Part shown: positions 34,184 through 54,371 of the stretch, one piece after another
How positions within the stretch are numbered: position 1 is the stretch's first letter
Layout: each line of letters begins with the position of its first letter
Origin: an uncultured Gammaproteobacteria bacterium
GTDB taxonomy: Bacteria > Patescibacteriota > Microgenomatia > Levybacterales > UBA12049
NCBI GenBank assembly: GCA_964637955.1
Contig: CAZWXQ010000001.1
Coordinates: forward strand, 21,936 to 85,935
Length of the DNA: 64,000 bases
Direction of reading: 5' to 3'
Notes under the pieces: model-generated
Database searches by the model: none
Seen by the model: the letters and a program-made list of their open reading frames with translations, nothing else
What the model was told of the DNA's origin: nothing
Made by a program: the position numbers and the translations under genes

Positions 34184-35074
34184 TTGGCTTATACTAATGC
34201 CATGACAAAATTAAGATATAAGAATTCAGTTATAGACGGTCAGGAAATTAATATCCCTTTTGCAATTATTAATGAAAAGAAAAGTAAATCAATATTAATA
34301 ACTGGAGGAATTGATGGGGACGAATATGTTGGAATAAAGGCAGCGTTTAAGCTGATAAATGATCTAGATAAAATTAAATCAGAATACAGAATAATAATAG
34401 TTCCTCTGGTGAATGTTTTTGGAAATAAAATTGGAGTTAGTCATAATCCTTTTGATGGGAAATACCCAAAGTATATATATCCAGGGAAAAAAGATGGCAC
34501 ATCAAGTGAACAACTTATATATCAATTGGAGGAATTTATAAATGAATGCTTTTTATGGATTGATTTACATTCAGGTTCTACTGAAGAAAAGTTGAATCCT
34601 TTTATTTGGACTTGGAAAACAAAGAATAAAAATATTAATGAGATCACCAGATCATTTCTGTCCAATCTATCAAATGAAAATATTATTTATCAAGATAAAT
34701 CTATAAGAAAAATTGAAGAACTTGCAAAGAGAAATATCTCATATTTGATGCTTGAATCAGGTGAATTAGGAAAAGAAAATATAAATGATATTTTAAAGCA
34801 TGTGGATTGGGTTAAAAAAATAATATCAAAAAAATCAACACAAGGTCCTTTGTCTGTTTATAAAAAAGTTCAGTTTTATAAATTTAAAAATTCAGAAATG
34901 TGGAAGCCTGAGATTAATCCAGGAAAAATAAATGAGGAAAAGTTAGTCGGAATTCTTGGTAAGAAGAAAATAATTTCAAATAAATCCGGATTGTTACTTT
35001 ATATGAAGAAATCTATGATTTTGAAAAAAGATACTGAACTTTTTGCAATTGCTTATGAAAAAGTAAAAATTTAA
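34184..35074 (+). CDS. AstE/AspA-like (succinylglutamate desuccinylase / aspartoacylase family) putative zinc deacylase
   Basis: LITGGIDGDEYVG resembles the family GGxHGNE metal site. Size is appropriate. Confidence 0.4.
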   Translation: MAYTNAMTKLRYKNSVIDGQEINIPFAIINEKKSKSILITGGIDGDEYVGIKAAFKLINDLDKIKSEYRIIIVPLVNVFGNKIGVSHNPFDGKYPKYIYPGKKDGTSSEQLIYQLEEFINECFLWIDLHSGSTEEKLNPFIWTWKTKNKNINEITRSFLSNLSNENIIYQDKSIRKIEELAKRNISYLMLESGELGKENINDILKHVDWVKKIISKKSTQGPLSVYKKVQFYKFKNSEMWKPEINPGKINEEKLVGILGKKKIISNKSGLLLYMKKSMILKKDTELFAIAYEKVKI

Positions 35075-36105
35075 TTTCTTTTCTTTGCTTTAAGATATGC
35101 CCAGCGAACTTTATCTGCTACAGTAAGAAGTCTATAGTTAAGTGGATTAATTACCAAATCAAAACTTCCTGCAAATTCGGTTAAACTAGCTCCAAAGCCT
35201 TGTTTGAACCTATGAAACCCGTAGTATGGATCGCTATTTTTTGGTTCGGGCACATTTGCTGCTCCCCACATATCAAAAGATTTAAGGCCTAGACTTTTGC
35301 CATATTTTATTGCTCCCCACATCGTAGCAGGTGAAGCCATTACATCTCTGTGCTCATCGCTTGATGCGCCGTATGGATAGTAAAGTTTATCTTTAAAGGT
35401 AAATAGAACGTAAGTTACTAATGTTTTTTTATTGTAGCTAGCTCTCAAGAGATTTGCTTGGAGTTTATTTGGATCAAACGATTCATTTTTTTTATTTCCA
35501 ATAGTTTCCCAAAGAAGTTTATGATAAGCATCATTATGTGCATAAAATTTTTGCCTTTTTGTAGTTTCATGGGTTAGTTTGAGATAGTCATTAAATGCTT
35601 TTTCGCTATTATCAATTTCTACTTTTACTCCTTTCTTCTCAGAAAGTTTGACATTGTATCTGGTTTTTTGATGCATATTTGAAAGAAGCTCTTCTTCTGA
35701 CCTAGTTAGATCAAGCATAAAAGTGAACCGCGTAAATAGTGGGTGAAAAGATGGGCGAATGTCAAAATTTTCAATTTTCAATTTAAAATTTTCAGTTGTT
35801 ATATTGGGCTCAAGTTGAATAAAACTAATTGAATTTTTCTTACCTAATTCTTCAAGATCTGAAATAAGATTTTTTGATGGTAAATCACCTTTTGGAAAAT
35901 AACCAATTAGATATGGAAAATTTGGAGTTTTATGGACTGTAAATTGGTAAGCTTCTTTAATTTTGCCTTCAATTATTTCTCCTCTGAAATAAGCATCAAG
36001 TCCTGTTTTTTTTCTAAATTGTCCCCATTCATAAGATTGAAGTGGATGATTTACAGCTTCGTTAAAAAGTTTAATCTGATCTTCATTTATATCCTGAAAG
36101 TTCAT
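35071..36105 (-). CDS. FemAB-family peptidoglycan-bridge / aminoacyl-tRNA-dependent transferase
   Basis: N-terminal SYEWGQF (cf. FemX QSWEWG) and two GNAT-like domains. Confidence 0.7.
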   Translation of the reverse strand: MNFQDINEDQIKLFNEAVNHPLQSYEWGQFRKKTGLDAYFRGEIIEGKIKEAYQFTVHKTPNFPYLIGYFPKGDLPSKNLISDLEELGKKNSISFIQLEPNITTENFKLKIENFDIRPSFHPLFTRFTFMLDLTRSEEELLSNMHQKTRYNVKLSEKKGVKVEIDNSEKAFNDYLKLTHETTKRQKFYAHNDAYHKLLWETIGNKKNESFDPNKLQANLLRASYNKKTLVTYVLFTFKDKLYYPYGASSDEHRDVMASPATMWGAIKYGKSLGLKSFDMWGAANVPEPKNSDPYYGFHRFKQGFGASLTEFAGSFDLVINPLNYRLLTVADKVRWAYLKAKKRN

Positions 36106-37945: not shown

Positions 37946-38611
37946 ATGAAAAAACTTATAAATGCAGCTAACTGGAAGTCTAATATGACTAAATTTGAGG
38001 CTAAAGGTTGGTTAGAAAATTTTAGCTTGCTTGATCATCCTTCGGAATCAGAAACAGTTTTATTTGCCCCTTTTACTTTATTGGATATGCTTTCAAGCTA
38101 TATAAGAATTAATGATGTATTGCCAGTTAACCTGGGAGCTCAAGATATATCCCCATTTGATAAAGGAGCTTTTACGGGAGAAATAAATGCTGATCAAATT
38201 AAAGAATTCGGAAATTTTGTATTAATTGGCCATTCGGAAAGAAGATCAAATTTTAATGAGAGTAATGATTTAATAAATAAAAAGATTGAAAAAGCTCTTA
38301 GTGCAGGACTAAGGGTTATAGTTTGTGTCTCAAACCTGGAACAAGTTAAAGCCTTAAATTCTAGTGAAATTATCATCGCATATGAACCCTTATCAGCAAT
38401 AGGAACCGGAAATGCTGAAAATCCGGAAGATGTAAAATCGTTTGTTGATAATATTAAAGAAATTAAAAATGTTAAAGTAATTTATGGAGGAAGCGTAAAG
38501 GCAGAAAATGTAAATCAGTACACCTCACTTGAAAATATAGAAGGAGTTTTGGTAGGATCAGCTAGTCTTGACGCAAATTCTTTTTCATCTCTGATAAAAA
38601 ATGCTTTTTAA
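37946..38611 (+). CDS. tpiA: Triose-phosphate isomerase
   Basis: ANWKSN, catalytic GHSERR, AYEPLSAIGTG and YGGSV. Confidence 0.85.
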   Translation: MKKLINAANWKSNMTKFEAKGWLENFSLLDHPSESETVLFAPFTLLDMLSSYIRINDVLPVNLGAQDISPFDKGAFTGEINADQIKEFGNFVLIGHSERRSNFNESNDLINKKIEKALSAGLRVIVCVSNLEQVKALNSSEIIIAYEPLSAIGTGNAENPEDVKSFVDNIKEIKNVKVIYGGSVKAENVNQYTSLENIEGVLVGSASLDANSFSSLIKNAF

Positions 38612-39707
38612 AAAAATTCTCGTATTTCTTTCACTTTTTCTGATCTTAGGTCTTGAGGTTGTGGTCAAAGGAGGATTTATTTCTCCAATTCTTTTTCAAG
38701 TTTTGTTTAATAAAAATATAGAGTTAAAGAAAACAGCAGTCGAAGATCAATCAATAAATATTTTACTTTTAGGAATTGGTGGAGGAAATCATGAAGGGCC
38801 GAAGCTCACTGATACGATTATCCTAGCTAATCTAAATTTGAAAGACAAAAAAGTTAGTTTAGTTTCACTCCCAAGAGATATCTGGTCATTTGATTTAAGA
38901 GATAGAGTCAATTCTGCATACGCACGTGGTGAGTCGAAAAAAGAAGGCGGAGGATTAGTTCTCGCAGAATCAATTGTAAGTAAAATTACAGGACAGAGCG
39001 TTAACTATGGAATCGTTATAGATTTTTCAGGGTTTACAAAATCTGTCGATCTTATGGGAGGGCTGGATATTAATGTTGATAAAGCTTTTGATGACAAACA
39101 ATATCCTATTACAGGAAACGAAAATGAACTATGTGGCCACACAGAAGAAGAAGTTAAAGAATTTACTGCAAGTAATTCTGCTGAAACAGAGCTTCCAGAT
39201 TTTTTCCCATGTCGATATGAGCACTTACGTTTTGAAAAAGGTGAACAGCATATGGATGGAGAAACAGCTCTAAAATTTGTAAGGTCTCGTCACGCATTAG
39301 GATCTGAGGGAACAGATTTTGCACGATCTCAAAGACAAGAGAAAGTAATTAAAGCATTTATGGACAAAGCATTTTCCCTCAAGATAATTGGAAATCCCAC
39401 TAAAATAATTGGTCTTTATAATACAGTTAAAGATTCGATCGATACTGATATTCCTCAAGAAGAATTTGATGATTTCATAAAATTAGGTCAAAAGTTTCAG
39501 AATGCGAAGCTCCAGAGCGTGGTAATTGATTATGGAGATGAAGAGGAAAAAAGAGGAGGATTACTTACGCATCCACCAACAAGTGAAAAATATGATTATA
39601 AGTGGACTTTGGTTCCTAGAATTGGCGAAAATGATTTTTCAGAAATTCATGAATATGTAAAATGCAGATTTACTAGAGTAGATTGTATAGTTTCAGAAAT
39701 TCCTTAA
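38601..39707 (+). CDS. LCP (LytR-Cps2A-Psr) family cell-envelope glycopolymer transferase
   Basis: N-terminal TM, then ILLLGIGGG...TDTIILANL...VSLPRDIW core. Confidence 0.8.
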   Translation: MLFKKILVFLSLFLILGLEVVVKGGFISPILFQVLFNKNIELKKTAVEDQSINILLLGIGGGNHEGPKLTDTIILANLNLKDKKVSLVSLPRDIWSFDLRDRVNSAYARGESKKEGGGLVLAESIVSKITGQSVNYGIVIDFSGFTKSVDLMGGLDINVDKAFDDKQYPITGNENELCGHTEEEVKEFTASNSAETELPDFFPCRYEHLRFEKGEQHMDGETALKFVRSRHALGSEGTDFARSQRQEKVIKAFMDKAFSLKIIGNPTKIIGLYNTVKDSIDTDIPQEEFDDFIKLGQKFQNAKLQSVVIDYGDEEEKRGGLLTHPPTSEKYDYKWTLVPRIGENDFSEIHEYVKCRFTRVDCIVSEIP

Positions 39708-41833
39708 TTTAACTTATAGATTTTTGTGTCGTTACTTTCGTAGATTAATTTTCCAAGTTTATTAAATTTTTCTTCAGAAATTTTATATTTTTCATTCTCT
39801 AAAACACCAATATAAATATAGGAGATATTATATTTATCTATAATTCCTTTTGCTAAATTCATGTCGGTTGTTTCATATAAATTTGTTATATCATTAAATC
39901 GTTTCGAAGGAGTATCATAACTTCCGCGCCACAGCCATTCATGAACTGTCCATCCTAGAACTGTAGGAAGTCCTGTATTTGCAGATATTCTAGCAAAGTC
40001 AGTGTATGAATCTCCCTGAGCCTCTAAGATAACTGGTTGTCCTCCAATAGTATTATTAATAAATTTAATTGCTTTATAATCTTCAGGCTTGATAACTTCA
40101 AGATATTTTAATCCATCAAGTCCTTTGTATGTCTTTAGATTTCCGTATCCTGAAGGGATTGCAAAATAAGGATAAATTGAAACTAAGAAAAGTAATATTA
40201 CTCCCCAAAATATGAAAATTGCATATCCAATTTTCCCAAGTGAACTTTTTGCTCCATTTTCCCTGAGAGAAGATAGGACTCTAATGATTGTATAAACGCT
40301 TGAAATGGAAAGCATTATAAATGCCTGATAGGATAGTTTAAACATGGTGTTAGCTCTAAAATGTCCTGTGTATATATCTTTTAGATAGATTATTTCAGGA
40401 GCCAAAATGAGGAGTAGTGAAAATAACGAAATTGTAAGTATGAAATAATCTGAAATTATTAATTTTTTTCTAAGTAGAAAAATCATGAGAGAAATTACCA
40501 TAAAAATAAAAAAACCATAAAGAATAAATAAAGTCCAAATTGGAGAAATTTGACAGAAATCTTTCTCAAAAATTAACGGCCCTATCTTTCCAATCTTAAT
40601 TAAAAAATTTGGAGAACAATTTAATCCAATTCCAGAAGCAAAAGGAGCAAAATTTTTATTGAACATAAAAGAAAATACAAAAAAAGATACCACTAGAAGC
40701 AAGACTGGTTTGATCGATTTGAGAGCGGAATTTATAAATTTTCTCACAACTTTCCCATTTTGATTTAGTAAATTTATTAAGAAAATAAAAATAAAACTTA
40801 ATCCCAGATAGATTAGTCCATCCCAAGCGTTTGTCATATAGGCTATGGAGAGTAAAAACGATAATAAAAGAGTTACTGAATATGAAACTTTTTTATTAAA
40901 GATTAAAACTAAGAATAAGCTAATCATAGTAAGGACTACAGGTATATCTAGGACATGTCCATGAAGATCTGCTACCACAAATGAATACAGAGGAAATTCA
41001 TGAATAGTATGATAAATAAATCTGGTGGCGCTTGGATACCAATAAGAATTTGGAAAAGTTGCAAGAGATAGTTTTAAATCCCAAAGAGGCTTTGGATATT
41101 CGGACTCATAATGAGCAAAGATTGAATATAGTGTTTGCAAATTTCCGGCAAATGAAACTACATATGCGAAGAAAAGACCTAAAATAAATGATTTTTTAAT
41201 TGAAAACTTTTTAATTTTATCGATAAGATTTATTCCAATTGAAAATGACATTGAAAAAGTAAATGCAAAAATTGTTGCAAGCATCAGGTTAAATGAAATT
41301 AAGGATGGAATACTGGAAATTTTTGTTGCAACTGCGGTAAACAAATGACCAAAGTAATAATAATTAATTGATAGTGGCGTTAGCCACATATCTCGTGGAG
41401 GAAAATATTCAGATCTTAAAATAGAGTTGATAAATCCAAAGTCCATATATTTTTCTAGATCATGAATGTCAGGATTAAATCCTTTAATATATGACCACAA
41501 GAAAAGTGCAAGAAGAAAAATAATTTCTTCAATGATAAAAAATTTAATATCTCTTTTATTAATTATTTTTTTATTTTTAATTAATAATATTTGTGGTATT
41601 AAAAGCACGATCCAAACAAGTAAGATATTTAATTGATTAAATTTGAGTATATGAAGTGAGCCGAGAATAAAAACTGAATATGAAATAATAAGTAAGCCAA
41701 TAACTTTTGAGAAAATATAACCTTTATCTAAGAAGTTTGAAAAAATCTTAGTGGTAAGAGGTAGAAAACTAATACCAATTAGCAGAAAGACTGCCCACCA
41801 TTTGAATACAAAAATAATCTCTAATCCTGTCAT
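39704..41833 (-). CDS. Large polytopic membrane protein, DUF2298/GT-C-like, with a C-terminal soluble domain
   Basis: ~13 TM helices followed by ~180 aa that are non-membrane. Overlaps its neighbours by 4 nt. Confidence 0.5.
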   Translation of the reverse strand: MTGLEIIFVFKWWAVFLLIGISFLPLTTKIFSNFLDKGYIFSKVIGLLIISYSVFILGSLHILKFNQLNILLVWIVLLIPQILLIKNKKIINKRDIKFFIIEEIIFLLALFLWSYIKGFNPDIHDLEKYMDFGFINSILRSEYFPPRDMWLTPLSINYYYFGHLFTAVATKISSIPSLISFNLMLATIFAFTFSMSFSIGINLIDKIKKFSIKKSFILGLFFAYVVSFAGNLQTLYSIFAHYESEYPKPLWDLKLSLATFPNSYWYPSATRFIYHTIHEFPLYSFVVADLHGHVLDIPVVLTMISLFLVLIFNKKVSYSVTLLLSFLLSIAYMTNAWDGLIYLGLSFIFIFLINLLNQNGKVVRKFINSALKSIKPVLLLVVSFFVFSFMFNKNFAPFASGIGLNCSPNFLIKIGKIGPLIFEKDFCQISPIWTLFILYGFFIFMVISLMIFLLRKKLIISDYFILTISLFSLLLILAPEIIYLKDIYTGHFRANTMFKLSYQAFIMLSISSVYTIIRVLSSLRENGAKSSLGKIGYAIFIFWGVILLFLVSIYPYFAIPSGYGNLKTYKGLDGLKYLEVIKPEDYKAIKFINNTIGGQPVILEAQGDSYTDFARISANTGLPTVLGWTVHEWLWRGSYDTPSKRFNDITNLYETTDMNLAKGIIDKYNISYIYIGVLENEKYKISEEKFNKLGKLIYESNDTKIYKLN

Positions 41834-43095
41834 AATTTAATAAATAATTTTATATTTCTTCTAATATCTGGAACTAGTACTATACCTGTAAGAATTAAAA
41901 TTGGCAAGATTTGTAAAAGTGAAACCATTTTCCAAGTTGTAAAAGTAGGATCTACGCCTAGCACTTTATCGCTAATAATTCCAATGTTTAATAATCTAAA
42001 GATGAAGAAAGTATTTGGAAGGCTGATTATTAAAATTAAAATTCTAGAAATTCTAGATTGAAATTCAACAAGCGTTAAAAGACAAATTGCCAAAACAGGA
42101 CCAAGAACACTAAAGTGATATTGAAAAATCAGATCATAAAAAAATAAGAAATAAACTACTAGTAGGAAAATCGATTTTTCAATTTTTATTTTTTTATCAA
42201 ATGATAAGATATAAATTGAAATAAGTGATAATATTTTTAAAATCCGTATTTGATTGATTGAAAAGCCAAAGCCGTTCCTGAGTAGGGCATCAAGAGAAAG
42301 AAAATCAATTCCTTTGGTAGCTATTGGAGTAAGTAGGTGATAAAAAATATTATTCGTATAATAATCGCCTAAACCTAAAAGATTAAAAGTAAGAGTTGAA
42401 ATTAAAAATATAGAAAGACCAATAATCGCAAGTTTTTTTTCTTTTTTAATTATTAAAACAGGAAGAAAGAGAAGACTAACTGGTTTCGCAATAAGAGTTA
42501 TAAAATAGAAAATTCCACCCTCAAGCTTGCTCTTATGTTTAGTCAAGTTAATTAAGAAAAATAAAATAAAAATATTAAATAAGAACTGAAACTGAGAGAT
42601 TTTTATTTCATTATATTGAGAAAAGAAAATAAGAAAGATAAAGATTGCAAAAGCTAAATATTTATTTTCTATAAAATTTTTATATATATAGAAAACACTG
42701 AATAGAGATATGAATATTTTAAAAATAATCCAGGCATTTATAGAAATTTCAGGATTAGTTAGAATTAATGCCCCGCCTAATATTATGGTTAAGAGTGGAT
42801 GGTAGACATTTAAATTTGTAACATAGTTTTTCGCATATGGTTCAAATCCATTCAGTAGCGTGCCATCTAATCCTCCGCCATTTATAAATGCATATGCTCC
42901 ATTAGGAATTTGATAAAAATCTAATCCTTGGCAACAGTGATGAATTGAGCTACCAAAAAAGAAAAAATCTAAAAAATGTGTTGAGAGAGCAGAAATATTA
43001 AATAAAAAATAAATTATAAATCCCAAAATTACAAGCTTACTTTTTATTACGTAATAAATAAATCTGTTAAGTTCAGACATAAAATTTAATAACAA
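41830..43095 (-). CDS. Polytopic membrane protein (GT-C/DUF2029-like, hypothetical)
   Basis: 421 aa with >10 TM segments. Operonic overlaps. Confidence 0.45.
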   Translation of the reverse strand: MLLNFMSELNRFIYYVIKSKLVILGFIIYFLFNISALSTHFLDFFFFGSSIHHCCQGLDFYQIPNGAYAFINGGGLDGTLLNGFEPYAKNYVTNLNVYHPLLTIILGGALILTNPEISINAWIIFKIFISLFSVFYIYKNFIENKYLAFAIFIFLIFFSQYNEIKISQFQFLFNIFILFFLINLTKHKSKLEGGIFYFITLIAKPVSLLFLPVLIIKKEKKLAIIGLSIFLISTLTFNLLGLGDYYTNNIFYHLLTPIATKGIDFLSLDALLRNGFGFSINQIRILKILSLISIYILSFDKKIKIEKSIFLLVVYFLFFYDLIFQYHFSVLGPVLAICLLTLVEFQSRISRILILIISLPNTFFIFRLLNIGIISDKVLGVDPTFTTWKMVSLLQILPILILTGIVLVPDIRRNIKLFIKL

Positions 43096-44723
43096 TTATC
43101 AGCAGTTTTATATATTGTATATTTTTCATCAGGATTATTATAAATCGAAGTAAATTCGTTTTCCCACAATGAAGATATTGGAGGCAAGTCAGGATTTGGT
43201 GTATTTTCAATTTTAATTTCTATATAATCTAAATTATTTAATTTTAGTAAATTGCATGCCTGAAATTTATTATTTGATCCCAAAATTTCTTTTAGCACAT
43301 CCCCTCTTTTATAGGTATCATAGCCTTGTGACCATGCAAAATATGGCCATCCAAAGAAAACTTTCCTGCCTGCAAGTGAAGGTGGATCATATAGATAAAT
43401 AGTATTTAAAAATGTTGCATTTTTTGGAGTATTGTTTAAAATCCAGGCAGCATTTGGGTTTGATCTCACATCATGAATTGTAATTTTATGATCATTTAAG
43501 AGAGGAAAAAAATCTATAATCCCACCAAAGATCATAAAAAAAGCAAAAATTATTGCTACAGGTTTTAGTAAATTATTTTTTTTCCAAATTAAATAAATTG
43601 CAAAGGCACAATACATATTTGTAATCAACGCAAAAAAATTGAAGAACTTATGATTTGCAGCAATTTCTGGAGAGAATTGAATTAAATTACCTATAATAAA
43701 AAGTGGGATAAAAGAAATTAGAAATTTCTTTTGATTTCTATTGGCTAAAATAAATCCAATTGGAATTAGAAAAAATGAAATCCCCAAATTATAAATCCAA
43801 AACTGTGTGAATTTAAAATAAGTAAATTCATTTGCAACTAAATATCCTGGATGAAAAAACATCTTAAAACCTTCTGAAGAATTTAAGTACATATATTGAG
43901 GAAATGCGATTATCGCTGTGATTATTAATAATAAAATTGAATATTTTCTAATCTGTTTAAATAAAATGGCTAAAAAGAATATTGTTGAAGCGGTCATGAT
44001 AAATACTGCCATGTGAAGAAAAAAAGAAAGTCCGAGTAAAATTCCTAGAATAATAAAAACTTTTATTTCAGGTCGTTCTTTTTTAAATATCGGTTTTAAT
44101 ATCAAATAAATTATGAGCAAAGATAATCCAAAAGAAACTGCTAGATGTCTTTGATTTGTATAAATATTAAGATTCCAAAAAGCGGAAACAATACCTTTAT
44201 CATAAGGAGCAAATGATTGGAAATTATCAATAAGTGGAATATTCTCAATTGAATTTAGGGTAAGTGGATTGTTTTTGAAGTAATAATAGTATGAAATTGA
44301 GGAATTAAAAATAAAAAATATCACACTTAATAATCCTACTAATCTTGATTTAAATACAGTTTTTGCTAATATAAAGATCATAAAGCATAGAAAAATAAAT
44401 CCTAAAATTGATGGTATATTTAATGCTAAATCAATTGGAAGTCCAAATTTTTCAAGCAGCCCTACTCCAAAATAAAATAAAAAATGATATTTAATTGCTT
44501 CACCCGAAAAAAGAGGATACTCTGGAGGAAAGTTTACTCCATAAGAAAATGATCTGATAAGTGGAATGTGACTTGCGAAATCACTCCATGATTTTGTCGA
44601 GATCATAAGTGAATCATTTTCTTTCGAAAAAGAAGAGAACATTAAGAAGCTTCCAATAATTAGGCCAATTAAGATTACAAGGATTTCAAAGTAATGTTTG
44701 CGGAAAAATTCATTAATTCTCAC
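43086..44723 (-). CDS. Polytopic membrane protein, GT-C-like (ArnT/PMT-like topology) with a C-terminal periplasmic domain
   Basis: ~12 TM helices plus a ~120-aa C-terminal soluble region. Confidence 0.45.
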   Translation of the reverse strand: MRINEFFRKHYFEILVILIGLIIGSFLMFSSFSKENDSLMISTKSWSDFASHIPLIRSFSYGVNFPPEYPLFSGEAIKYHFLFYFGVGLLEKFGLPIDLALNIPSILGFIFLCFMIFILAKTVFKSRLVGLLSVIFFIFNSSISYYYYFKNNPLTLNSIENIPLIDNFQSFAPYDKGIVSAFWNLNIYTNQRHLAVSFGLSLLIIYLILKPIFKKERPEIKVFIILGILLGLSFFLHMAVFIMTASTIFFLAILFKQIRKYSILLLIITAIIAFPQYMYLNSSEGFKMFFHPGYLVANEFTYFKFTQFWIYNLGISFFLIPIGFILANRNQKKFLISFIPLFIIGNLIQFSPEIAANHKFFNFFALITNMYCAFAIYLIWKKNNLLKPVAIIFAFFMIFGGIIDFFPLLNDHKITIHDVRSNPNAAWILNNTPKNATFLNTIYLYDPPSLAGRKVFFGWPYFAWSQGYDTYKRGDVLKEILGSNNKFQACNLLKLNNLDYIEIKIENTPNPDLPPISSLWENEFTSIYNNPDEKYTIYKTADNCY

Positions 44724-46002
44724 TTAGAATATAATCCGTTATTTTTTCTCCTAATTCAACTGCGTAATTTGTGCCCCTATCCCATGGATAAACCTGTTCA
44801 ATATTTGCCAAATAAATATTTTTAAATGGAGTTTTCATTGGTGGAATCATCTTGGAATAGTTGGTAGGAATAATTGGTTGAGCAAATGGTGCTTTAAACA
44901 ATTCATAGTTAAGTAAAGTTTTTTTATAATTTGGATTTATCTTTTTAAGAAAAGGGTCAAAAAGTTTTAAAACCTCATCTTTATTCATTGCAAATCTTTC
45001 AGATGATGGATCCAGATAATTTCCAAGATAAACTAAAAATTCATTATTATAGTGTTTTTTATCCATAAAATTAGTATGTTCGACAATTGCCATTATGGGA
45101 GATTTTGGGTCGCAAACGCTTACCCAATAGGTTCCGTCTCCAAAAAACGATTTATTTAATCTTAGAACCAAATTTGTAGCACCAATTCCTCGAAGTTTTG
45201 AAAATTTTTGCTTATAACTTTGTGGAAGATCCTTGGTGATATTTAGAAATAAAAATGATGGCAGAGTGAAGATCACTTTATCAAATTCATATTCTAATAC
45301 TTTTTTTCCTTCTTTAATTTTTACACTTACTTTTTTATTCTTTATTTCTTTAACTTCAATTACCTCAGAGTTAAATTTTACCGTTCCATCTTTTTTCTCA
45401 ATCTCCTTTACCAAATGATTTGCAAAATTTAAAAACCCACCTTCAGGATAAGCAAGGGAAGGTGTTCTCTTGACAATTCTTGCCCAAAACCATGCAAGTG
45501 AAATATCATTTGCATATGGACCAAATTTGTTTTTAAAAAGTGGTTCCCAAATCATTTCATATCCTTTTCGTCCAATTGTCCTCGGTAGAAATTTTGTAGC
45601 ATTAAATTTTTCAAGAGGTTTCCAGAAGGGATCAAATTTTATAAGTCCAATCACTACACCCATTCGGAGTCTATCAATTACAGATAATTTGGGGAACATC
45701 AAAACTTCTTTGGGAGAGTCAAATTGATATATTTTTTCATCGACATATACAGAAGTCTTAGGTCTCTTTATAATTACTTTGTGGTTGATTTTTTTTGCTA
45801 AATCTAAAACAGATTTGTCATTCGTGAACCAGTGATGATAATGCTTCTCGAGAGTCCAATCCCATTTCTTATCAGTAAATCCAAGTGCGAGCCCTCCTGG
45901 TATTTCATCTCTCTCAAAAACAAATACTTCATGACCTTTATTTGCTAAGTTATATCCTGCAGAAAGCCCTGTAAATCCGGCACCAATAATACCTATTTTC
46001 AT
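44713..46002 (-). CDS. Rossmann-type FAD/NAD(P)-dependent oxidoreductase (amine-oxidase/PPO/UGM-like fold)
   Basis: N-terminal dinucleotide-binding motif MKIGIIGAGFTGLSAGYNLANKGHEVFVFE...GG. Confidence 0.7.
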   Translation of the reverse strand: MKIGIIGAGFTGLSAGYNLANKGHEVFVFERDEIPGGLALGFTDKKWDWTLEKHYHHWFTNDKSVLDLAKKINHKVIIKRPKTSVYVDEKIYQFDSPKEVLMFPKLSVIDRLRMGVVIGLIKFDPFWKPLEKFNATKFLPRTIGRKGYEMIWEPLFKNKFGPYANDISLAWFWARIVKRTPSLAYPEGGFLNFANHLVKEIEKKDGTVKFNSEVIEVKEIKNKKVSVKIKEGKKVLEYEFDKVIFTLPSFLFLNITKDLPQSYKQKFSKLRGIGATNLVLRLNKSFFGDGTYWVSVCDPKSPIMAIVEHTNFMDKKHYNNEFLVYLGNYLDPSSERFAMNKDEVLKLFDPFLKKINPNYKKTLLNYELFKAPFAQPIIPTNYSKMIPPMKTPFKNIYLANIEQVYPWDRGTNYAVELGEKITDYILSEN

Positions 46003-46073
46003 ATTTATAAATTTAATCTTAGTTGTTTATCATCAGTAATTATAGCAAAATAAATTTATAACATTACTGTCTT

Positions 46074-46934
46074 TTATAAATTTATAGGAGTTGTATTTTT
46101 TATTGATTGACCCGAAGATTTAGTTTTAAGTTTAGAGGAAAATTCAGGAAATTTTGCATTATCCCTCGTATCTTTTGGTGAATTATCGTTTATTTCAGAG
46201 AAATCATAATTATTTGAAATCGTAATTATTGGTATGTCAGATAATAAATCAGTGGAAAGTTGGATTTTTGAATTTTGATTTTCTGCAAAAATATCTATAT
46301 TTACCGGCATATTTTCGCCAAATTCATACAAGCTTTCTAAATCAAAATTCTTTAAATTATTTAGTTGAATAGCATAGGATCCAGTATCATCGATAAGCGT
46401 TGATAAAATTTGAGCTCCGCTTATTTTAATTACGACTATTCCATCTTTAGGAACTAGGCCATCAGAAGTAATTACTTTGCCAGAGATTAGATTTTGAATA
46501 TTCGATATCTCCCCAAATGTAGAAGAAGTCTTTGTCACATAAGGATCATCGTTATTTGAGTATGTTTTATTTCCCGAAGTAATTGTGTAGTAATACCTAG
46601 AGTCAGGTTTTAAATTATCAACAGTGATCATGTGAGTTTGATGTTTGCCAACTGATCCAGATTCTTTATCTCTATTGTCAATATTTTTTATGTTTAGATT
46701 TTTTGGATTCTCTCCGGAATTTATCGTCCCAATTACTTCGTCATCTGTGGTATAGGTTATGGTAAAGCCCGTATCTGAAATATTTGAAACTTCAATATTT
46801 TTGGGCGTTTGGCCAGGTCCTGCATTAACTTGAAGAGAATTTCCTCCTTTAATTAAAAAAGTCGTAGCTATTATTCCAGTTGTGATTACTAGAACTGCTA
46901 AGATTGAGGGAATTTTTCTATCTAAGAGTCTCAT
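46074..46934 (-). CDS. Membrane-anchored protein with an FN3-like domain and a carboxypeptidase-regulatory-like beta domain
   Basis: TM anchor, an FN3 pattern (NISDTGFTITYTTDD...RYYYTI), and ISGKVITSDGLVPKDGIVVIKISG...TGSYAI. Confidence 0.5.
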   Translation of the reverse strand: MRLLDRKIPSILAVLVITTGIIATTFLIKGGNSLQVNAGPGQTPKNIEVSNISDTGFTITYTTDDEVIGTINSGENPKNLNIKNIDNRDKESGSVGKHQTHMITVDNLKPDSRYYYTITSGNKTYSNNDDPYVTKTSSTFGEISNIQNLISGKVITSDGLVPKDGIVVIKISGAQILSTLIDDTGSYAIQLNNLKNFDLESLYEFGENMPVNIDIFAENQNSKIQLSTDLLSDIPIITISNNYDFSEINDNSPKDTRDNAKFPEFSSKLKTKSSGQSIKNTTPINL

Positions 46935-46935
46935 G

Positions 46936-47238
46936 TTATTGGTTTTCCTCTAGAGTGATATCTATATTGGCAGAATCACTAGCCTCACCTTGATTAATAT
47001 TTGATTCAGAAGAAGTTGCATCATTAACTAATATTCCATTTGCGGGATTAACTCTTTTTCTTTCTTTAACCTCCGAAATTGTTTTACTATCAAAGTTTCC
47101 TTTAATTGGAATTATTTGATAGGTTAGGGGATCTGTGATCGTAGATGAAACATAGTTATGGTATACATTAAAAACTACCCAACAAATTGTAAGTATAAAA
47201 ACTGGAATAAGTAAAATTGTAATTTGTCTTTGTTTCAT
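46936..47238 (-). CDS. Small membrane-anchored protein (possible pilus assembly accessory)
   Basis: 100 aa with an N-terminal TM. Lies in the operon between the FN3 protein and pilO. Confidence 0.4.
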   Translation of the reverse strand: MKQRQITILLIPVFILTICWVVFNVYHNYVSSTITDPLTYQIIPIKGNFDSKTISEVKERKRVNPANGILVNDATSSESNINQGEASDSANIDITLEENQ

Positions 47239-47239
47239 T

Positions 47240-47839
47240 TTATTTTTTATAATATGCCCAACCTTTAATTATAAAATCAAAATTTTCACTGTCTTCACCT
47301 TTAGATGCTTGAATAGAACTTATTGAAATTACTCTCTGTGAGTTAATTAGATTATCAACAAATGTTTGTATGTTTTCAAATCTGGAAATGCCTGAGATAT
47401 TAAATGAAAATGAAGAGCTGGAGGTAGATGATGAAGAGCTTAGGTTTACTGGTGATACTTCAATGTTTGTTATTTGGACCAACGAATCTCCTCCGATTGA
47501 TTGGATTTGACCTACAAGTGTTGGGACTTGTGGATCTTTTGGAACTGCATCAAAAATTAGCGGAAGATCCTCTTGGAGCAATTGATATTCTTGGGAAAGT
47601 TGAGATATATTATTTATTTTTTGAGAAAGCTGTTGTTCTACAAATCTCGCATCAGTAATTTGTTTTTTTAGCTTTGCAATCGTTGAAAGTGTGGGATTGA
47701 TCGCAAATATGAAAAAGAAAATCGAAGCAGAAATAGAGAGTATTATTAGAAAATATTTTTGGTTATTCTCTTTTTTTATTGCAGGTACCAAATCTTTATA
47801 GTATTTATCAAAATTTGAAGTTTTAAATAATTTTTTCAC
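47240..47839 (-). CDS. pilO: Type IV pilus assembly protein PilO-like
   Basis: Single TM plus a coiled coil and the PilO-type periplasmic domain. Overlaps pilN by 4 nt. Confidence 0.55.
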   Translation of the reverse strand: MKKLFKTSNFDKYYKDLVPAIKKENNQKYFLIILSISASIFFFIFAINPTLSTIAKLKKQITDARFVEQQLSQKINNISQLSQEYQLLQEDLPLIFDAVPKDPQVPTLVGQIQSIGGDSLVQITNIEVSPVNLSSSSSTSSSSFSFNISGISRFENIQTFVDNLINSQRVISISSIQASKGEDSENFDFIIKGWAYYKK

Positions 47840-48375
47840 TCAATTGCTCCTTTCAATCCAACGGTTAAAGTTACGTTAGTAAAGCTTCCTCCAGAACTAT
47901 TATCAATGCCTGTAATGATTACTGAGGTAACGTTGGGATGCTCTTTTAGAGATTTAGCATAGGCTGTTAATGCTGGGAATGAAGCAACATTTATGTCTAG
48001 ATCAAGTTTATTTTCGGAAGCAGTTATTGAATTATAGGTTATTTCAGGTGGAGTTTTTTCTACAATTTCTTTAACTATAACAGGTGTAAAATTTTTTATG
48101 GTTGAAGCGCTTTTAATTGTGGCTAATCTTTCATGAAGGTTGCGATAAGTCTCTTCTTGTGTTCTACTGCTTTCAATTATTGCTTGCTCATCTTTTATCT
48201 TATCGTTTAAGTCTATTATTTGCCTGTCTAAGACAAATCTATAGATAAATGCGCTAAATGCTACTATTTCTACTAGAATTATTAAAAATCTACCAAAACT
48301 TAAAGCCCACCTTAAAATTTCATCAGTTAAGCTTGTTTTACTTTTAATTAAATCAATTTGGTTAGATTTGGGCAT
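47836..48375 (-). CDS. pilN: Type IV pilus assembly protein PilN-like
   Basis: Cytoplasmic N-terminus, one TM (FLIILVEIVAFSAFIYRFVL), and a periplasmic coiled coil. Confidence 0.55.
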   Translation of the reverse strand: MPKSNQIDLIKSKTSLTDEILRWALSFGRFLIILVEIVAFSAFIYRFVLDRQIIDLNDKIKDEQAIIESSRTQEETYRNLHERLATIKSASTIKNFTPVIVKEIVEKTPPEITYNSITASENKLDLDINVASFPALTAYAKSLKEHPNVTSVIITGIDNSSGGSFTNVTLTVGLKGAIE

Positions 48376-48426
48376 GTAATTTTAGTCTATGGGTTTTTGA
48401 AGCTTTTGTCAAAAATAATATTGAGG

Positions 48427-48699
48427 TTATTTAGCTTTGGATTTTGGTTTTTCAGTAGATGTGCCTGCTGATTTTGATTTAGCGAGTCTCGATTTGATTC
48501 TAGCAGCTTTATTTTTATGGATTAATCCTTTTTTTGCAGCTTTATCGATAACTTTACTGGCTTCTGATAAGCTTTTTACTGTAACACTTTTTTTAGTTTT
48601 CTTTACAGTTTTTTTGTAAGTTGATTTGAGAGATATGTTTGCTTGTTCTCTTTTTTTATCTTTTCTTAATTTCTTTTTTGCTTGTTTTGTTACTGGCAT
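48427..48699 (-). CDS. rpsT: 30S ribosomal protein S20
   Basis: MPVTKQAKKKLRKDKKR...KAARIKSRLAK. TAAAAT lies 6 nt upstream. Confidence 0.85.
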   Translation of the reverse strand: MPVTKQAKKKLRKDKKREQANISLKSTYKKTVKKTKKSVTVKSLSEASKVIDKAAKKGLIHKNKAARIKSRLAKSKSAGTSTEKPKSKAK

Positions 48700-48783
48700 A
48701 GGCGCATTTTAGCATGCTATACTGATATTCGCAACATCCTGCAATGCTTTTGGTGGGAAAAGAGTAAGCGGGTATTTTTTCAT

Positions 48784-50496
48784 ATGCCTTTACGTTTCTT
48801 TCAAAAAGGTCTTTCTTTTCTCCTTAAACAACAAACAAACATCCTTTCTGCAGCATTTGTTTTAATGGCAACAGCGGTTTTTTCTCAGATTCTAGGATTG
48901 GTAAGACAGAGGTTATTAGTTGCAAATTTTGGAGCAACTGATACTCTTGGAGTTTATCTCGCATCTTCAAGAATACCTGATTTCTTTTTCCAGCTTATTA
49001 TCGCTGCTGCATTGACTACAGCCTTTATTCCGGTTTTTACCAATTTTTTGCATCACAACAAGCATGATTCAGCAAATAAAATGGCTTCAGCAGTTTTATG
49101 CTTGGGTTTTTTATTTTTCGGCGTAGTTTCAGTAATACTTTTTATCTTTGCTCCATTTTTTCTACAGTTCATAAACCCTGGAGCAGGTTATAATCCAGAA
49201 CAAATGGCTCTCATGGCAAATTTAATGAGAGTTATTATTTTTGGACAGCTTATATTTTTAATTGCCACTTTTTTTGCATCAATTCTTCAATCTCACAATC
49301 ATTTTTTAGTCGCTGGTATTTCAGCTGCCCTTTATAACCTCGGAATAATTATAGGAATAGTATTTCTTTCAGATAAAATCGGAATTTATGCACCTGCAGT
49401 GGGAGTAATTATTGGAGCATGTTTTTTTGCTGTATTCCAGTTGCCTTTTGTTAGAAAAGTTGGATTTAAATTTATGCCTAGTTTTTCAACTAAAATTGAT
49501 GGAGTCCGAGAGGTTGGTAACCTGATGGCGCCAAGAACTTTATCTATTCTTATTCTTCAGTTGGGAACTCTTATAACTGTATCTTTAATTTCATTTTTGC
49601 CTTCTGCTGGTAGAAGTTATGTCATATATGATTATGCGATGACTTTGGCATTTGCCCCAATTGTTTTATTTGGGCAAAGCATTGCGCAGGCGGCGCTGCC
49701 TGTGTTGTCTCGTGAAAAAGATAATCTTGTTAATTTTCGCTCTACATTTTCAGCAAGTTATATACAAATGCTTTATTTAGTTCTGCCTGTTTCTGTGCTT
49801 TTTTTAATTCTTCGAATACCTATCGTAAGACTTGTTTTTGGAGCAGCGGAGTTTGATTGGGCAGCAACTGTTTTAACCGGGAGAACGCTAGCCTTCTTCT
49901 CGTTATCAATTTTTGCAAGTGCTTTAATTTATCTCGTTAGTCGAGCTTTTTATGCACTGCACAATACAAAAACACCTCTCATAATTGGTGCCATAACTAC
50001 CGCTGTTATGATTCTACTTAGCCTTCTTTTTGTTTTATTTTGGAGTCAAAATCTCGAAACTTTAGCAAATGCTTATACAGGGAGATTCAGGCTTATTCCG
50101 GTTGGCGTTGAATCACTAGCGTTTACTTATTCTGTTGCAGCAATTTTAAATCTAATACTCCTACTCTTCTTCTTAAATAAAAAAATAAAATTAATAACTA
50201 AGGATTTTATTGTTCCTCAAATAAAAATATTTTTATGTGTAATATTTATGGGATTTGCACTTTATATTCCAATAAAATTACTCGATCAGTTAGTTTTTGA
50301 CACCACCAGAACTGTAAACTTGATTTTACTAACTGGAATTTCAAGTCTTCTTGGGTTTGGAATTTACTTCTTTCTCACCTGGCTTTTTGATGTTAAAGAA
50401 GCAAGTACATTCCTTTTAATGTTTAAGAAGATAGGTGGATCAAAGCAAATAATTGACGAAAGTGAAAAAATTATTGAGCCAAGAATTAGTCAGTAA
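48784..50496 (+). CDS. murJ: Lipid II flippase MurJ. The start is set to Met35 of the track ORF.
   Basis: Family N-terminus ...ILSAAFVLMATAVFSQILGLVRQRLLVANFGA, 14 TM helices. The longer start would overlap rpsT, and TGCTATACT at ~48717-48725 acts as the promoter. Confidence 0.8.
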   Translation: MPLRFFQKGLSFLLKQQTNILSAAFVLMATAVFSQILGLVRQRLLVANFGATDTLGVYLASSRIPDFFFQLIIAAALTTAFIPVFTNFLHHNKHDSANKMASAVLCLGFLFFGVVSVILFIFAPFFLQFINPGAGYNPEQMALMANLMRVIIFGQLIFLIATFFASILQSHNHFLVAGISAALYNLGIIIGIVFLSDKIGIYAPAVGVIIGACFFAVFQLPFVRKVGFKFMPSFSTKIDGVREVGNLMAPRTLSILILQLGTLITVSLISFLPSAGRSYVIYDYAMTLAFAPIVLFGQSIAQAALPVLSREKDNLVNFRSTFSASYIQMLYLVLPVSVLFLILRIPIVRLVFGAAEFDWAATVLTGRTLAFFSLSIFASALIYLVSRAFYALHNTKTPLIIGAITTAVMILLSLLFVLFWSQNLETLANAYTGRFRLIPVGVESLAFTYSVAAILNLILLLFFLNKKIKLITKDFIVPQIKIFLCVIFMGFALYIPIKLLDQLVFDTTRTVNLILLTGISSLLGFGIYFFLTWLFDVKEASTFLLMFKKIGGSKQIIDESEKIIEPRISQ

Positions 50497-52439: not shown

Positions 52440-54371
52440 ATGCAATTTCTTCTCTCCGTTTCTATTTTTTTAATTTCTATTTTAATCGCTTTTTTTATCC
52501 CGGGTAATGTCATTTTAAGAAAAATAAGCTTAACTAAAACTCAAAGGATCGCGAATTCATTCATAATTGGAATTATTTTTTGGGCTTTTCAAGCATACAT
52601 ATTAGGATATTTAAATATTGAATGGGGTACATATTTATATTTAATACTTTTTATATTTTTGCAGATTTACATTATTTTTAAGTCAAATTTTAATATAAAA
52701 TCAGTCTTTAAGAATTTAAAAAAAGAAAAATTAGAATATAAAACATATTTTCTAATTATTTTAGGAATAATATCTACATCTTCTGTTTTATTTACTTTTG
52801 GGATAAATGTTGATTCCGGGTTTTTACTATGCTGTGGAGATTTTCGAGATAATTTACTTCATTTGGCTTATATAAATCAGGTAATTAAAAATATTCCGCC
52901 CATGGAACCAGGCTTAGCAGGAAATGAAATTAGCAATTACCATTATTGGATGCATATTGTAATTGGGGATTTGATTAGAGTTTTTAAGCTTCCAATTATT
53001 GATACTACAATGAGGTTCTTCCCAATATTTTTATCTACTCTTCTTGCTTTACTTTTAGTTTCTTTTTCACAGACTCTTAAATTTTCAAAAAAATTATTAT
53101 TTTGGTTAATTTTCTTTTTCTTTTTTACAGGAGATTTTATTTATTTAGTTCATTTGTTATTAGGAAATGGCTTATCTTTTGATAATTATATTCATACAAA
53201 TATAACTTTATTTGTAAATTATCCTTTTGGATTCTCAGTAATAGTAATTATGGGAGCTATTAATTTGCTAGCGTTATATATCTTAAACAAAAGCAAGTTT
53301 TTATTAATTCTGACGGGACTCACTGTAGGAAGCGTAATTGGATTTAAAGTTAATTCTGGATTTTTTATGCTTAGTGGTTTAGCTGTTTTAGCTACTTATG
53401 GATTAGTTAAAAAGAAATTTGAATTTATAATCCTTTTTTTATGGTCGGCCATTATTAGTTTGTTTATTTATTTACCGACAAGTTTACATTCTTCAGGGGG
53501 TTTGATATTTACTGGGTTTTGGAGAGTGCAAGATTATATTGTTCAGCCTTCTTTTGGTTTATCGCGAATGGAGCTTGCGAGGAGAATCTATCTAGATCAT
53601 GATAACTTCATTAAAGTTTTTTTGTACAACATTTTTTATTCTATATTTTATTTGTTTGCAGTGCTTGGAGTATTGCTTGGAGTATTTATAGTTCCATTTA
53701 AAATTTTGAAAAAAATACCAGCAGAATTAAATGTTTTTCTTTTATCAAGCATAGTCATAAGTTTTATAACAGGATTTTTCTTTATTCAAAATCCAGGTGG
53801 AGCAAATAGTATGTTTTTTATTACTATCTCTCTCGTAATATTAAGCATATACTGCGCATTATTTGCTGATTATTGGACTTCTAAATGGAATAAAAAAAGT
53901 TTTAATATTTTAATATCATTTTTAATAGTATTAGTAACTATTCCCACAACAATTTATTTTCTTTATTCAAGCTCAAAAATATTAATTAATAAGCCGGTTA
54001 TAACTACCGAAGAAATGCAAGCAATAAAGTATCTAACTGATAATACAAATAAAGATAGTACTTTATTGGTATTAAATAATTATTTAGATCAACATTCTTC
54101 ATACATTAACTTTTTGTCAGATAGGCCTTCATTCTTGTCTGGCCAAGAAGCAGAATTAGAAGTTCACGGAATTTACTTTAAGGATAGACAGGGCAGTTCA
54201 GACATAATTTTTAAGAATAAATCTTCAAAAAGTGTCATGTATGAAATTAATAAAATAGGCATTAATTACATTTACATGAATTCCAGTGACAAATTAAATT
54301 GTCAGTGTGAAGATAAGCTAAAAAAGGTATTTCAAAATGATGTAATTAAAATATTAAAAACGGATAATTAA
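52440..54371 (+). CDS. Large polytopic membrane protein (GT-C-like paralogue, hypothetical)
   Basis: 643 aa with ~14 TM helices plus a C-terminal soluble domain. Architecture is similar to 39704-44723. Confidence 0.45.
   Translation: MQFLLSVSIFLISILIAFFIPGNVILRKISLTKTQRIANSFIIGIIFWAFQAYILGYLNIEWGTYLYLILFIFLQIYIIFKSNFNIKSVFKNLKKEKLEYKTYFLIILGIISTSSVLFTFGINVDSGFLLCCGDFRDNLLHLAYINQVIKNIPPMEPGLAGNEISNYHYWMHIVIGDLIRVFKLPIIDTTMRFFPIFLSTLLALLLVSFSQTLKFSKKLLFWLIFFFFFTGDFIYLVHLLLGNGLSFDNYIHTNITLFVNYPFGFSVIVIMGAINLLALYILNKSKFLLILTGLTVGSVIGFKVNSGFFMLSGLAVLATYGLVKKKFEFIILFLWSAIISLFIYLPTSLHSSGGLIFTGFWRVQDYIVQPSFGLSRMELARRIYLDHDNFIKVFLYNIFYSIFYLFAVLGVLLGVFIVPFKILKKIPAELNVFLLSSIVISFITGFFFIQNPGGANSMFFITISLVILSIYCALFADYWTSKWNKKSFNILISFLIVLVTIPTTIYFLYSSSKILINKPVITTEEMQAIKYLTDNTNKDSTLLVLNNYLDQHSSYINFLSDRPSFLSGQEAELEVHGIYFKDRQGSSDIIFKNKSSKSVMYEINKIGINYIYMNSSDKLNCQCEDKLKKVFQNDVIKILKTDN

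Follow-up and report, generated by a model that had tools for sequence, protein, structure and literature searches.

Why would a bacterium place a pair of type IV pilus alignment genes in one operon with an FAD-dependent oxidoreductase and a series of large polytopic membrane proteins? We studied this question in a stretch of 64,000 nucleotides (hereafter, the window; positions 21,936 to 85,935 of contig CAZWXQ010000001.1, GenBank assembly GCA_964637955.1) from a member of the Levybacterales, within the Microgenomatia of the Patescibacteriota, where eight minus-strand open reading frames (ORFs) starting with pilN and pilO occupy positions 39704-48375. The answer that we favour, with moderate confidence, is that this conserved Microgenomates operon encodes a lipid-linked extracytoplasmic glycosylation module that is co-expressed with pilus alignment proteins. 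Of the large membrane proteins encoded in the operon and near it, at least three and probably four are glycosyltransferases of the GT-C fold, and comparison of gene order across related genomes indicates that the arrangement exceeds chance, because all eight genes have orthologues in these genomes and the tight junctions between them are kept over dozens of species-level genomes.

Organization of the operon

Our examination of the window confirmed eight minus-strand ORFs, at coordinates that agree with those given in a sequence-only reading of the same DNA that preceded this analysis. In order of transcription, followed by two genes outside the operon that bear on its interpretation, these are:

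47836-48375, minus strand: pilN, 179 aa, bitopic type IV pilus alignment protein with the N-terminal motif IDLIK (assigned from Pfam matches of its orthologues, a PDB profile match and the motif)
47240-47839, minus strand: pilO, 199 aa, bitopic type IV pilus alignment protein (Pfam PilO, E 1.5e-10, 41.8 bits against a cut-off of 22)
46936-47238, minus strand: S100, small bitopic protein of 100 aa, conserved, with no family match
46074-46934, minus strand: FN3/Ig-like (Big_13-type) membrane-anchored extracytoplasmic protein, 286 aa, with one N-terminal hydrophobic segment
44713-46002, minus strand: FAD-dependent oxidoreductase, 429 aa, of the PRK07233 family (NCBIfam NF005560, full length; Pfam Amino_oxidase, E 6e-21)
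43086-44723, minus strand: M545, 545 aa, probable GT-C glycosyltransferase, a divergent DUF2298 paralogue with a C-terminal soluble domain (AlphaFold2 model and profile comparison)
41830-43095, minus strand: M421, 421 aa, probable accessory GT-C of GT87/DUF2029-like type, with a likely start at 43080 (Pfam GT87, E 9e-4, under the cut-off)
39704-41833, minus strand: M709, 709 aa, DUF2298/Chlor_Arch_YYY membrane protein with the motif INYYYFGH and a C-terminal soluble domain (Pfam DUF2298, E 7e-92)
52440-54371, plus strand: M643, 643 aa, third member of a DUF2298-like GT-C superfamily, outside the operon (no Pfam match; linked to M545 by hhalign)
38601-39707, plus strand: LytR-CpsA-Psr (LCP) protein, a glycopolymer-to-peptidoglycan ligase (Pfam LytR_cpsA_psr, E 8e-32)

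The spacing at each junction, computed from the longest ORFs, is as follows:

pilN/pilO: 4-nt overlap
pilO/S100: 1-nt spacer
S100/FN3: 1-nt spacer
FN3/FAD: 71-nt gap, 46003-46073
FAD/M545: 11-nt overlap
M545/M421: 10-nt overlap, or a 5-nt spacer if M421 begins at the ATG of an identical 416-aa database protein (P0121)
M421/M709: 4-nt overlap

The sequence-only reading had described an overlapping operon with a single gap of 72 nt; the overlaps of 4-11 nt stand, with the corrections that two of the junctions are 1-nt spacers and that the gap is 71 nt. Its claim that the LCP gene converges on the end of the operon also holds, with a 4-nt overlap between LCP and the end of M709. For comparison we used 80 related loci, taken from one genome per species of Levy-, Shapiro-, Woese-, Davies-, Gottesman- and Blackburnbacteria.

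Pilus alignment genes

On the evidence of sequence and profile comparison, the first two genes are genuine pilN and pilO genes, as the sequence-only reading had named them. PilO is well above the Pfam cut-off and has orthologues in 56 loci. The match of the window PilN to the Pfam PilN model is weak (E 0.039), and its identity is given by its relatives: 18 of 23 PilN orthologues match this model (best E 2e-13), the best PDB match of the family profile is the Myxococcus xanthus PilN 3jc8, in register and with an E-value of 8e-4, and an N-terminal INL(L/I)(K/P) motif is conserved across the family. An N-terminus of this INL type is known as the PilM-binding peptide of PilN. Both PilN and PilO have one hydrophobic segment. 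Orthologues of S100 were found in 42 loci, always between pilO and the FN3 gene and never more than 20 nt from either. The fourth protein had been described as an anchored protein with FN3 and carboxypeptidase-regulatory-like domains; in the window its matches to Pur_ac_phosph_N and fn3 are both below the Pfam threshold, and it is the orthologues that match Big_13, fn3 and CarboxypepD_reg.

The window ORFs that were scanned include no pilM, pilB, pilC, pilT, pilD or pilin gene, nor do the flanks of the operon in related genomes, and neither a prepilin motif nor a pilin gene is present in the window or in 87 related loci. We also considered Ser/Thr-rich tracts within the operon proteins as possible glycan acceptors. 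This idea was rejected: the poly-Ser tract SSSSSTSSSSFS of the window PilO (approximately residues 134-145) is missing from all 56 orthologues and thus peculiar to this genome, and the remaining tracts are unremarkable.

Polytopic membrane proteins

Neither Pfam nor NCBIfam contains a model that matches M545 (for both M545 and M643 there is no NCBIfam match at E<=0.1, including TIGR03662 and TIGR03663). The AlphaFold2 model of M545 has a pLDDT of 85.6 and a pTM of 0.88, and its 12 best PDB matches are all GT-C enzymes (DPY19, AglB, AftA, PglB and ArnT), with E-values of 8e-9 to 2e-4 and a probability of 1.0. Among these, the lowest E-values belong to the protein-modifying enzymes DPY19, AglB and PglB, and the best TM-scores to AftA (0.58/0.53). 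The C-terminal domain is weakly similar to the globular domain of AglB (3vu0; probability 0.93-0.98, E ~0.5), and the first loop carries an invariant Asp48 within the sequence WSDFASH. An identity of these membrane proteins as transporters was examined and discarded, with Foldseek probabilities <0.15 and TM-scores of ~0.1 for transporters against the M545 model.

M709 is a full-length member of TIGR03662 (E 3e-151; 505.6 bits against a cut-off of 300.25). Alignment of the M709 and M545 families using hhalign gave a probability of 97.5% and an E-value of 9e-12 over 472 columns that include the C-terminal domain, so that M709 would also be a GT-C enzyme by homology to M545; the aspartate of its first loop, D131 (MDxG), is invariant. 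The same comparison joined M545 to the M643 family (99.4%, E 1e-21, 505 columns), which we built from a 50%-cluster library (925 cluster representatives at E<=1e-3) and which has in common with M545 the motif D...H...FPPxEP...NYHYW; D137 in the first loop of M643 is nearly invariant. A few members of the M643 family match Pfam DUF6541. No orthologue of M643 was found in the 80 related loci, where other genes follow LepA; M643 is a lineage-specific insertion at this place.

M421 differs from these three proteins. It is unrelated to M545, M709 and M643 (hhalign probability <1%), and its hydrophobic segments extend to residue 412 of 421, which leaves no soluble C-terminal domain. Many of its homologues carry PF09594, one of them is named as a DUF2029 protein, and Asp59 in its first loop is invariant. 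M421 is found in the window and 12 related loci (13 of approximately 80). We asked in addition whether its linkage is kept in distant homologues, and found that the copies in Ktedonobacteria stand alone. Simple paralogy of the three operon membrane proteins was likewise abandoned, as BLASTP returned nothing significant and profiles connect M709, M545 and M643 and exclude M421. Three of the structural claims of the sequence-only reading can be judged from these data. Its assignment of the large membrane proteins to GT-C glycosyltransferases rather than transporters is borne out by the M545 structural matches, the M709-M545 alignment and the GT87 matches of M421 relatives; its soluble C-terminal domains are present in M545 and M709 and absent from M421; and its fourth paralogue, M643, is a remote paralogue of M545, with M421 being instead an unrelated and dispensable GT87-like insert.

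The position of M421 between M545 and M709 is a variable slot. In about half of the loci this slot is empty, and in the remainder it contains one or two more polytopic proteins (7-12 transmembrane segments), sometimes with a methyltransferase. Of nine slot proteins that we sampled, six pass the Pfam PMT_2 cut-off, two are just below it and one shows a faint match. The slot therefore looks like a glycan-diversity cassette that differs between species. Taken together, M545, M643 and M709 thus belong to one DUF2298-like GT-C superfamily, in which the families of M545 and M643 are unannotated, and M421 adds a GT87-like GT-C to the window. GT-C enzymes use sugar donors linked to polyprenyl phosphate and work on the outer side of the membrane; a positively charged N-terminus and homology predict that the first loop with the conserved Asp faces outside in the proteins described here too.

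FAD-dependent oxidoreductase

The flavoprotein is covered almost end to end (residues 1-427 of 429) by NF005560/PRK07233, with an E-value of 7e-119 and 397.5 bits against a cut-off of 252, and this family is named merely “hypothetical protein” in NCBIfam. Its AlphaFold2 model has a pLDDT of 87, and a Foldseek search with this model identified protoporphyrinogen oxidase (PPO; 2ive, E 1e-22), phytoene desaturase (PDS; 5mog, TM-score 0.80), monoamine oxidase and L-amino-acid oxidase, as well as the unannotated archaeal structural-genomics proteins 3ka7 and 3nrn, with TM-scores of 0.72-0.80 overall. The modelled fold is thus of the PPO/phytoene-desaturase/amine-oxidase type, in an uncharacterised subfamily. 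A loop of the protein, residues 47-62, is an invariant His/Trp-rich segment, WDWTLEKHYHHWFTND, and contains the sole low-confidence stretch of the model (pLDDT <50, residues 49-57); this loop could serve as a lid over the substrate or bind the membrane.

Several named identities were examined and rejected. The score against the HemY model TIGR00562 is 32.9 bits, against a cut-off of 97.85, and scores against CrtI, PDS and HpnE are also far under the model cut-offs; no heme or carotenoid genes are present near the FAD gene. UDP-galactopyranose mutase (UGM) can be discarded as well, with no GLF match at E<=0.1, a profile alignment over the N-terminal FAD motif only, and no place among the 50 best structural matches. 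The sequence-only reading had left the choice between HemY/PPO, UGM and an amine oxidase to be settled, and these results settle it against HemY and UGM.

The flavoprotein has neither a signal peptide nor a transmembrane segment and should therefore act at the cytoplasmic face, where it is probably a monotopic protein. Its sequence is 65-88% identical among its 120 best homologues; over the related loci, PilN and PilO are 25-50% identical and the GT-C proteins 40-65%. This strong conservation, together with the cytoplasmic location, suggests an invariant step on a lipid carrier or a lipid-linked donor. The usual reaction of PPO- and PDS-type enzymes is dehydrogenation of a C-C or C-N bond in a hydrophobic substrate, and modification of the polyprenyl chain is for this reason our leading guess. 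A search of the literature, at the level of titles and abstract openings, found no PDS-type polyprenol reductase among the papers listed.

Conservation in related genomes

Most of the 80 loci have the order rpsT-pilN-pilO-(S100)-FN3-FAD-M545-(slot)-M709, followed by a convergent LCP gene. Of 61 loci with at least 5 kb of sequence upstream of M545, 52 contain pilN and pilO upstream on the same strand. The junctions are also kept: genes are 20 nt or less apart at pilN/pilO in 53 of 55 loci, at pilO/S100 in 42 of 42 and at S100/FN3 in 44 of 44 (medians of -4 to +1). At the FN3/FAD junction, 37 of 53 loci stay within this distance, and a 4-nt overlap is the usual arrangement.

Using homologues of the FAD protein, we identified a second genomic context, in which fusA rather than rpsT/MurJ is located upstream. 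The loci in this context keep pilN, pilO, the small protein (S100), a Big_13 protein and the FAD gene, followed by one to three PMT_2 GT-C genes, often by a gene for a short-chain dehydrogenase/reductase (SDR) epimerase, a methyltransferase or a family 4 glycosyltransferase (GT4), and then by DUF2298; M545 is absent from them. The coupling of pilN and pilO to FAD and GT-C genes is therefore kept in two genomic contexts, which answers positively the question of conservation raised by the sequence-only reading. In one locus of the fusA context (L086:19064-21281), weak T4SS_pilin, PrgI and TraC-like matches directly follow DUF2298 and suggest that a conjugation-type system adjoins the operon there.

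Additional genes are inserted in some lineages. For example, in Shapiro-, Woese- and Blackburnbacteria, anchored cohesin, dockerin and subtilase/FG-GAP proteins are encoded between the FN3 and FAD genes (L060:6196-8721, L065:2971-8705, L041:6434-8707), and these may form cellulosome-like surface assemblies or be substrates of the glycosylation module. In a Gottesmanbacteria-like locus (L074:13390-19661), a UbiA-family prenyltransferase, an SDR epimerase/dehydratase, a GT4 and two methyltransferases are encoded between M545 and the FAD gene, and this locus also carries a PMT-like GT-C; it is the only related locus with UbiA. Many of the GTDB records that contain this Microgenomates operon (L005, L008-L012 and others) are titled “uncultured Gammaproteobacteria bacterium”, and the record of one FAD homologue (P0270) gives Methylomirabilota; mislabelling of metagenome-assembled genomes is the probable cause.

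Neighbouring genes and candidate promoters

On its own strand, pilN is preceded by rpsT, with a spacer of 51 nt, and beyond rpsT, on the other strand, are MurJ, LepA and M643. In its longest form the MurJ ORF extends over the start of rpsT, which is on the opposite strand, and the true start of MurJ is therefore probably further downstream. On the other side of the operon, the neighbours are LCP, TIM, UvrD and FemAB. The G+C content is ~30%, and homologues point to a Candidatus Levybacteria (Microgenomates) bacterium as the source. Two sites were noted as candidate promoter elements:

48384-48412, minus strand: promoter-like site TTGACA-17-TAGACT just upstream of pilN (consensus scan, a pattern match only)
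46003-46073, minus strand: the 71-nt FN3/FAD spacer, holding TGCTATAAT, an extended -10-like element read from the sequence

A promoter and terminator scan of the region gave a total number of sites that was not above that of shuffled sequence. TGCTATAAT is a possible internal promoter, in this genome only.

The window contains plentiful envelope genes, including those for an LPG-synthase-TM-like protein, two FemAB-family peptidyltransferases and MurJ (28188-29216, 31647-32558, 35071-36105 and 48682-50496). It also encodes, at 21273-23279, a 668-aa fusion of a holin-like domain with four transmembrane segments (Phage_holin_4_2) and a type I phosphodiesterase/nucleotide pyrophosphatase domain.

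A proposed function and its alternatives

We propose that the operon has two functional halves that would be transcribed together and, for the most part, translationally coupled. The first half would be the membrane part of a pilus alignment complex, with PilN, PilO and two lineage-specific bitopic partners (the 100-aa and FN3/Big_13 proteins), and the N-terminus of PilN should bind a PilM encoded elsewhere. The second half would consist of the FAD enzyme and then an array of GT-C enzymes, in which M545 and M709, with an architecture like that of oligosaccharyltransferases (OST), bracket a variable cassette. Sugars carried on polyprenyl phosphate would be transferred by the GT-C enzymes at the outer face of the membrane, giving an extracytoplasmic acceptor a glycan that varies between lineages. 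This acceptor would most plausibly be a surface protein, either a pilin or one of the anchored Ig-like, cohesin or dockerin proteins; we favour a protein acceptor because of the OST-, DPY19- and PMT-like relatives and the anchored surface proteins encoded in these operons. Earlier in the pathway, at the cytoplasmic face, the FAD enzyme would act in an invariant step on either the lipid carrier or the lipid-linked donor, and co-expression with PilN and PilO could either locate glycosylation at the site of pilus assembly or time it.

Within this proposal, the GT-C folds, the paralogy, the gene order and its conservation are observed; the mechanism that would link the pilus scaffold to glycosylation is what we infer from them. 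A glycan pathway is indicated by the richer loci, which add SDR, GT4 and methyltransferase genes (one with UbiA). A lineage-variable glycan is suggested by a cassette that varies between two fixed DUF2298-type genes, and an invariant substrate of the flavoenzyme fits with its 65-88% identity where PilN and PilO are at 25-50%. A more specific version, which we regard as unlikely, is that PilN, PilO and the two bitopic proteins are a scaffold for a DUF2298-type machine that would glycosylate pilins or pilus-associated proteins at the assembly site, using a donor or carrier produced by a new reaction of a PPO-fold flavoenzyme.

Several observations weigh against our proposal. Gottesman- and Daviesbacteria keep the triad of FAD, M545 and DUF2298 genes in a rearranged order and without pilN and pilO, and in some Woesebacteria loci the FAD gene is missing at this position; the coupling is therefore not obligatory. 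The flanking genes rpsT, MurJ, LCP, TIM, UvrD and FemAB are almost equally syntenic, so that part of the linkage may be inherited order, and in the window itself a 71-nt gap with a -10-like element separates the two halves. Among the window ORFs scanned we found no donor-forming polyprenyl-phosphate glycosyltransferase and none of pilM, pilB, pilC and a pilin gene. No PPO-fold flavoenzyme is known to act on lipid-linked sugars, and our literature search returned no biochemical data for DUF2298, M545, M643 or PRK07233.

The alternative that survives best is a wall glycopolymer or lipoglycan, in which a lipid-linked polysaccharide is extended by the GT-C enzymes beyond the membrane, LCP ligates this to peptidoglycan, and pilN and pilO are co-resident merely as envelope-biogenesis genes. 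Mycobacterial Emb, Aft and Mpt enzymes provide the analogy, and the best TM-scores of the M545 model, to AftA, agree with it. In most loci LCP lies right beside M709; the neighbourhood also contains MurJ, an LPG-synthase-like gene and two FemAB genes, and GT-C arrays accompanied by genes for an SDR, a GT4 and methyltransferases look like polysaccharide clusters. However, LCP does not adjoin the triad in Gottesman- and Daviesbacteria, and since it travels with TIM and UvrD its position may be passive synteny. The operon also lacks an initiating phosphoglycosyl transferase, a flippase and a polymerase, the structural relatives with the lowest E-values modify proteins, and the linkage of pilN-pilO-S100-FN3 to FAD and GT-C genes in a second context would be left unexplained. 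We consider this alternative rather unlikely.

Strict pilin glycosylation, of the kind seen with TfpW arabinosylation and with the FAD enzyme in the role of DprE1, is quite improbable. It would account for genuine pilN and pilO genes in the same operon as GT-C enzymes of OST-like architecture, and the L074 locus, with UbiA and SDR genes by the FAD gene, recalls the decaprenyl-phospho-arabinose (DPA) pathway. On the other side, there is no pilin or prepilin motif in the window or the 87 related loci, the flavoenzyme has a PPO/amine-oxidase fold and not that of DprE1, no homologue of DprE1 or DprE2 was found, UbiA is confined to a single locus, and the triad is present without pilN and pilO in some lineages. 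The analogy to TfpW and D-arabinofuranose that the sequence-only reading had drawn is thereby lost. That there is no functional link at all, and that the genes are adjacent because these small genomes are rarely rearranged and keep an inherited order, is very unlikely: the nearly equal synteny of adjoining housekeeping genes over the same loci, the separable halves in Gottesman- and Daviesbacteria and the possible internal promoter in the 71-nt gap of the window would fit, but pure passive synteny is made less likely by the 4-nt start/stop overlaps of FN3 and FAD in most loci, by an internal order that is kept when the upstream genes change from rpsT/MurJ to fusA, and by insertions that are surface-anchored proteins or glycan enzymes and not random genes. 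A glycosylation module co-expressed with pilus alignment proteins therefore remains the reading that we prefer.

Significance

Patescibacteria rely on type IV pili for host attachment (PMC11623550), and little is known of their surface glycosylation; this operon is a testable entry into the surface glycobiology of the candidate phyla radiation (CPR). It is kept over more than 50 species-level genomes, and links a pilus scaffold to four families that have yet to be given a function (DUF2298, PRK07233 and two DUF2298-like families without annotation), thereby providing an entry point to the function of DUF2298. If the locus does generate glycan diversity, it would be relevant to host and phage recognition. 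The scaffold version, if true, would assign DUF2298, the M545 and M643 families and PRK07233 their first function, in episymbionts that depend on pili.

Comparison with known systems

The flavoenzyme shares its fold, at TM-scores of 0.75-0.80, and its N-terminal dinucleotide-binding motif with HemY, phytoene desaturase and amine oxidases. A flavoenzyme gene directly upstream of a GT-C gene, as seen here in a pilus-related setting, is likewise found in the TfpW/DPA system and in mycobacterial dprE1-dprE2-aftA. However, DprE1 has a vanillyl-alcohol oxidase (VAO) fold, unlike the PPO/amine-oxidase fold of the enzyme described here. In the group IV pilin arabinosylation system of Pseudomonas aeruginosa (bioRxiv 10.1101/2020.04.19.049825), TfpW adjoins the pilin gene. 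In the window, by contrast, the GT-C genes are near pilN and pilO with no pilin nearby, no UbiA or DprE2 is present, and the operon has no SDR.

Compared with GT-C(A) enzymes (STT3/AglB/PglB, DPY19, AftA and ArnT), M545 has the same fold and an invariant first-loop Asp; it is only 8-14% identical to them, and in place of a WWDYG motif has the Trp-rich sequences GWPYFAW and HEWLWRG. DUF2298/TIGR03662 proteins are known from Chloroflexi and Archaea, often paired with the PMT-like TIGR03663, and pairing with other GT-C enzymes is seen in this operon too. M709 is a full-length member of this family, whereas M545 and M643 are outside the Pfam and NCBIfam models and are linked to it by profiles only, which show common loop motifs (D...FPP...Y-H/Y-Y) and a common C-terminal domain. 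Our literature searches for DUF2298, TIGR03662, the YYY domain and PMT in the CPR gave nothing relevant, the papers that we found on AglS contain no link to DUF2298, and we found no paper describing the function of DUF2298, this operon, or the linkage of such genes with pilN/pilO and a PRK07233 flavoenzyme.

The closest comparison for the first half of the operon is with PilMNO loci. As in known loci, a PilN with a PilM-binding-type N-terminus is followed by PilO. In Saccharibacteria, pilM, pilN and pilO are grouped with pilB, pilC, pilT, pilD and pilin genes (PMC11623550), whereas in the window pilN and pilO follow rpsT and precede the genes for two further bitopic proteins and the putative glycosylation genes; the vicinity has no gene for PilM, an ATPase, a platform protein or a pilin. 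The arrangement is therefore distinct from that of loci where pilMNO sit with the core pilus genes. Each of its parts belongs to a known superfamily (PilN/PilO, GT-C, GT87 and PPO-fold flavoenzymes).

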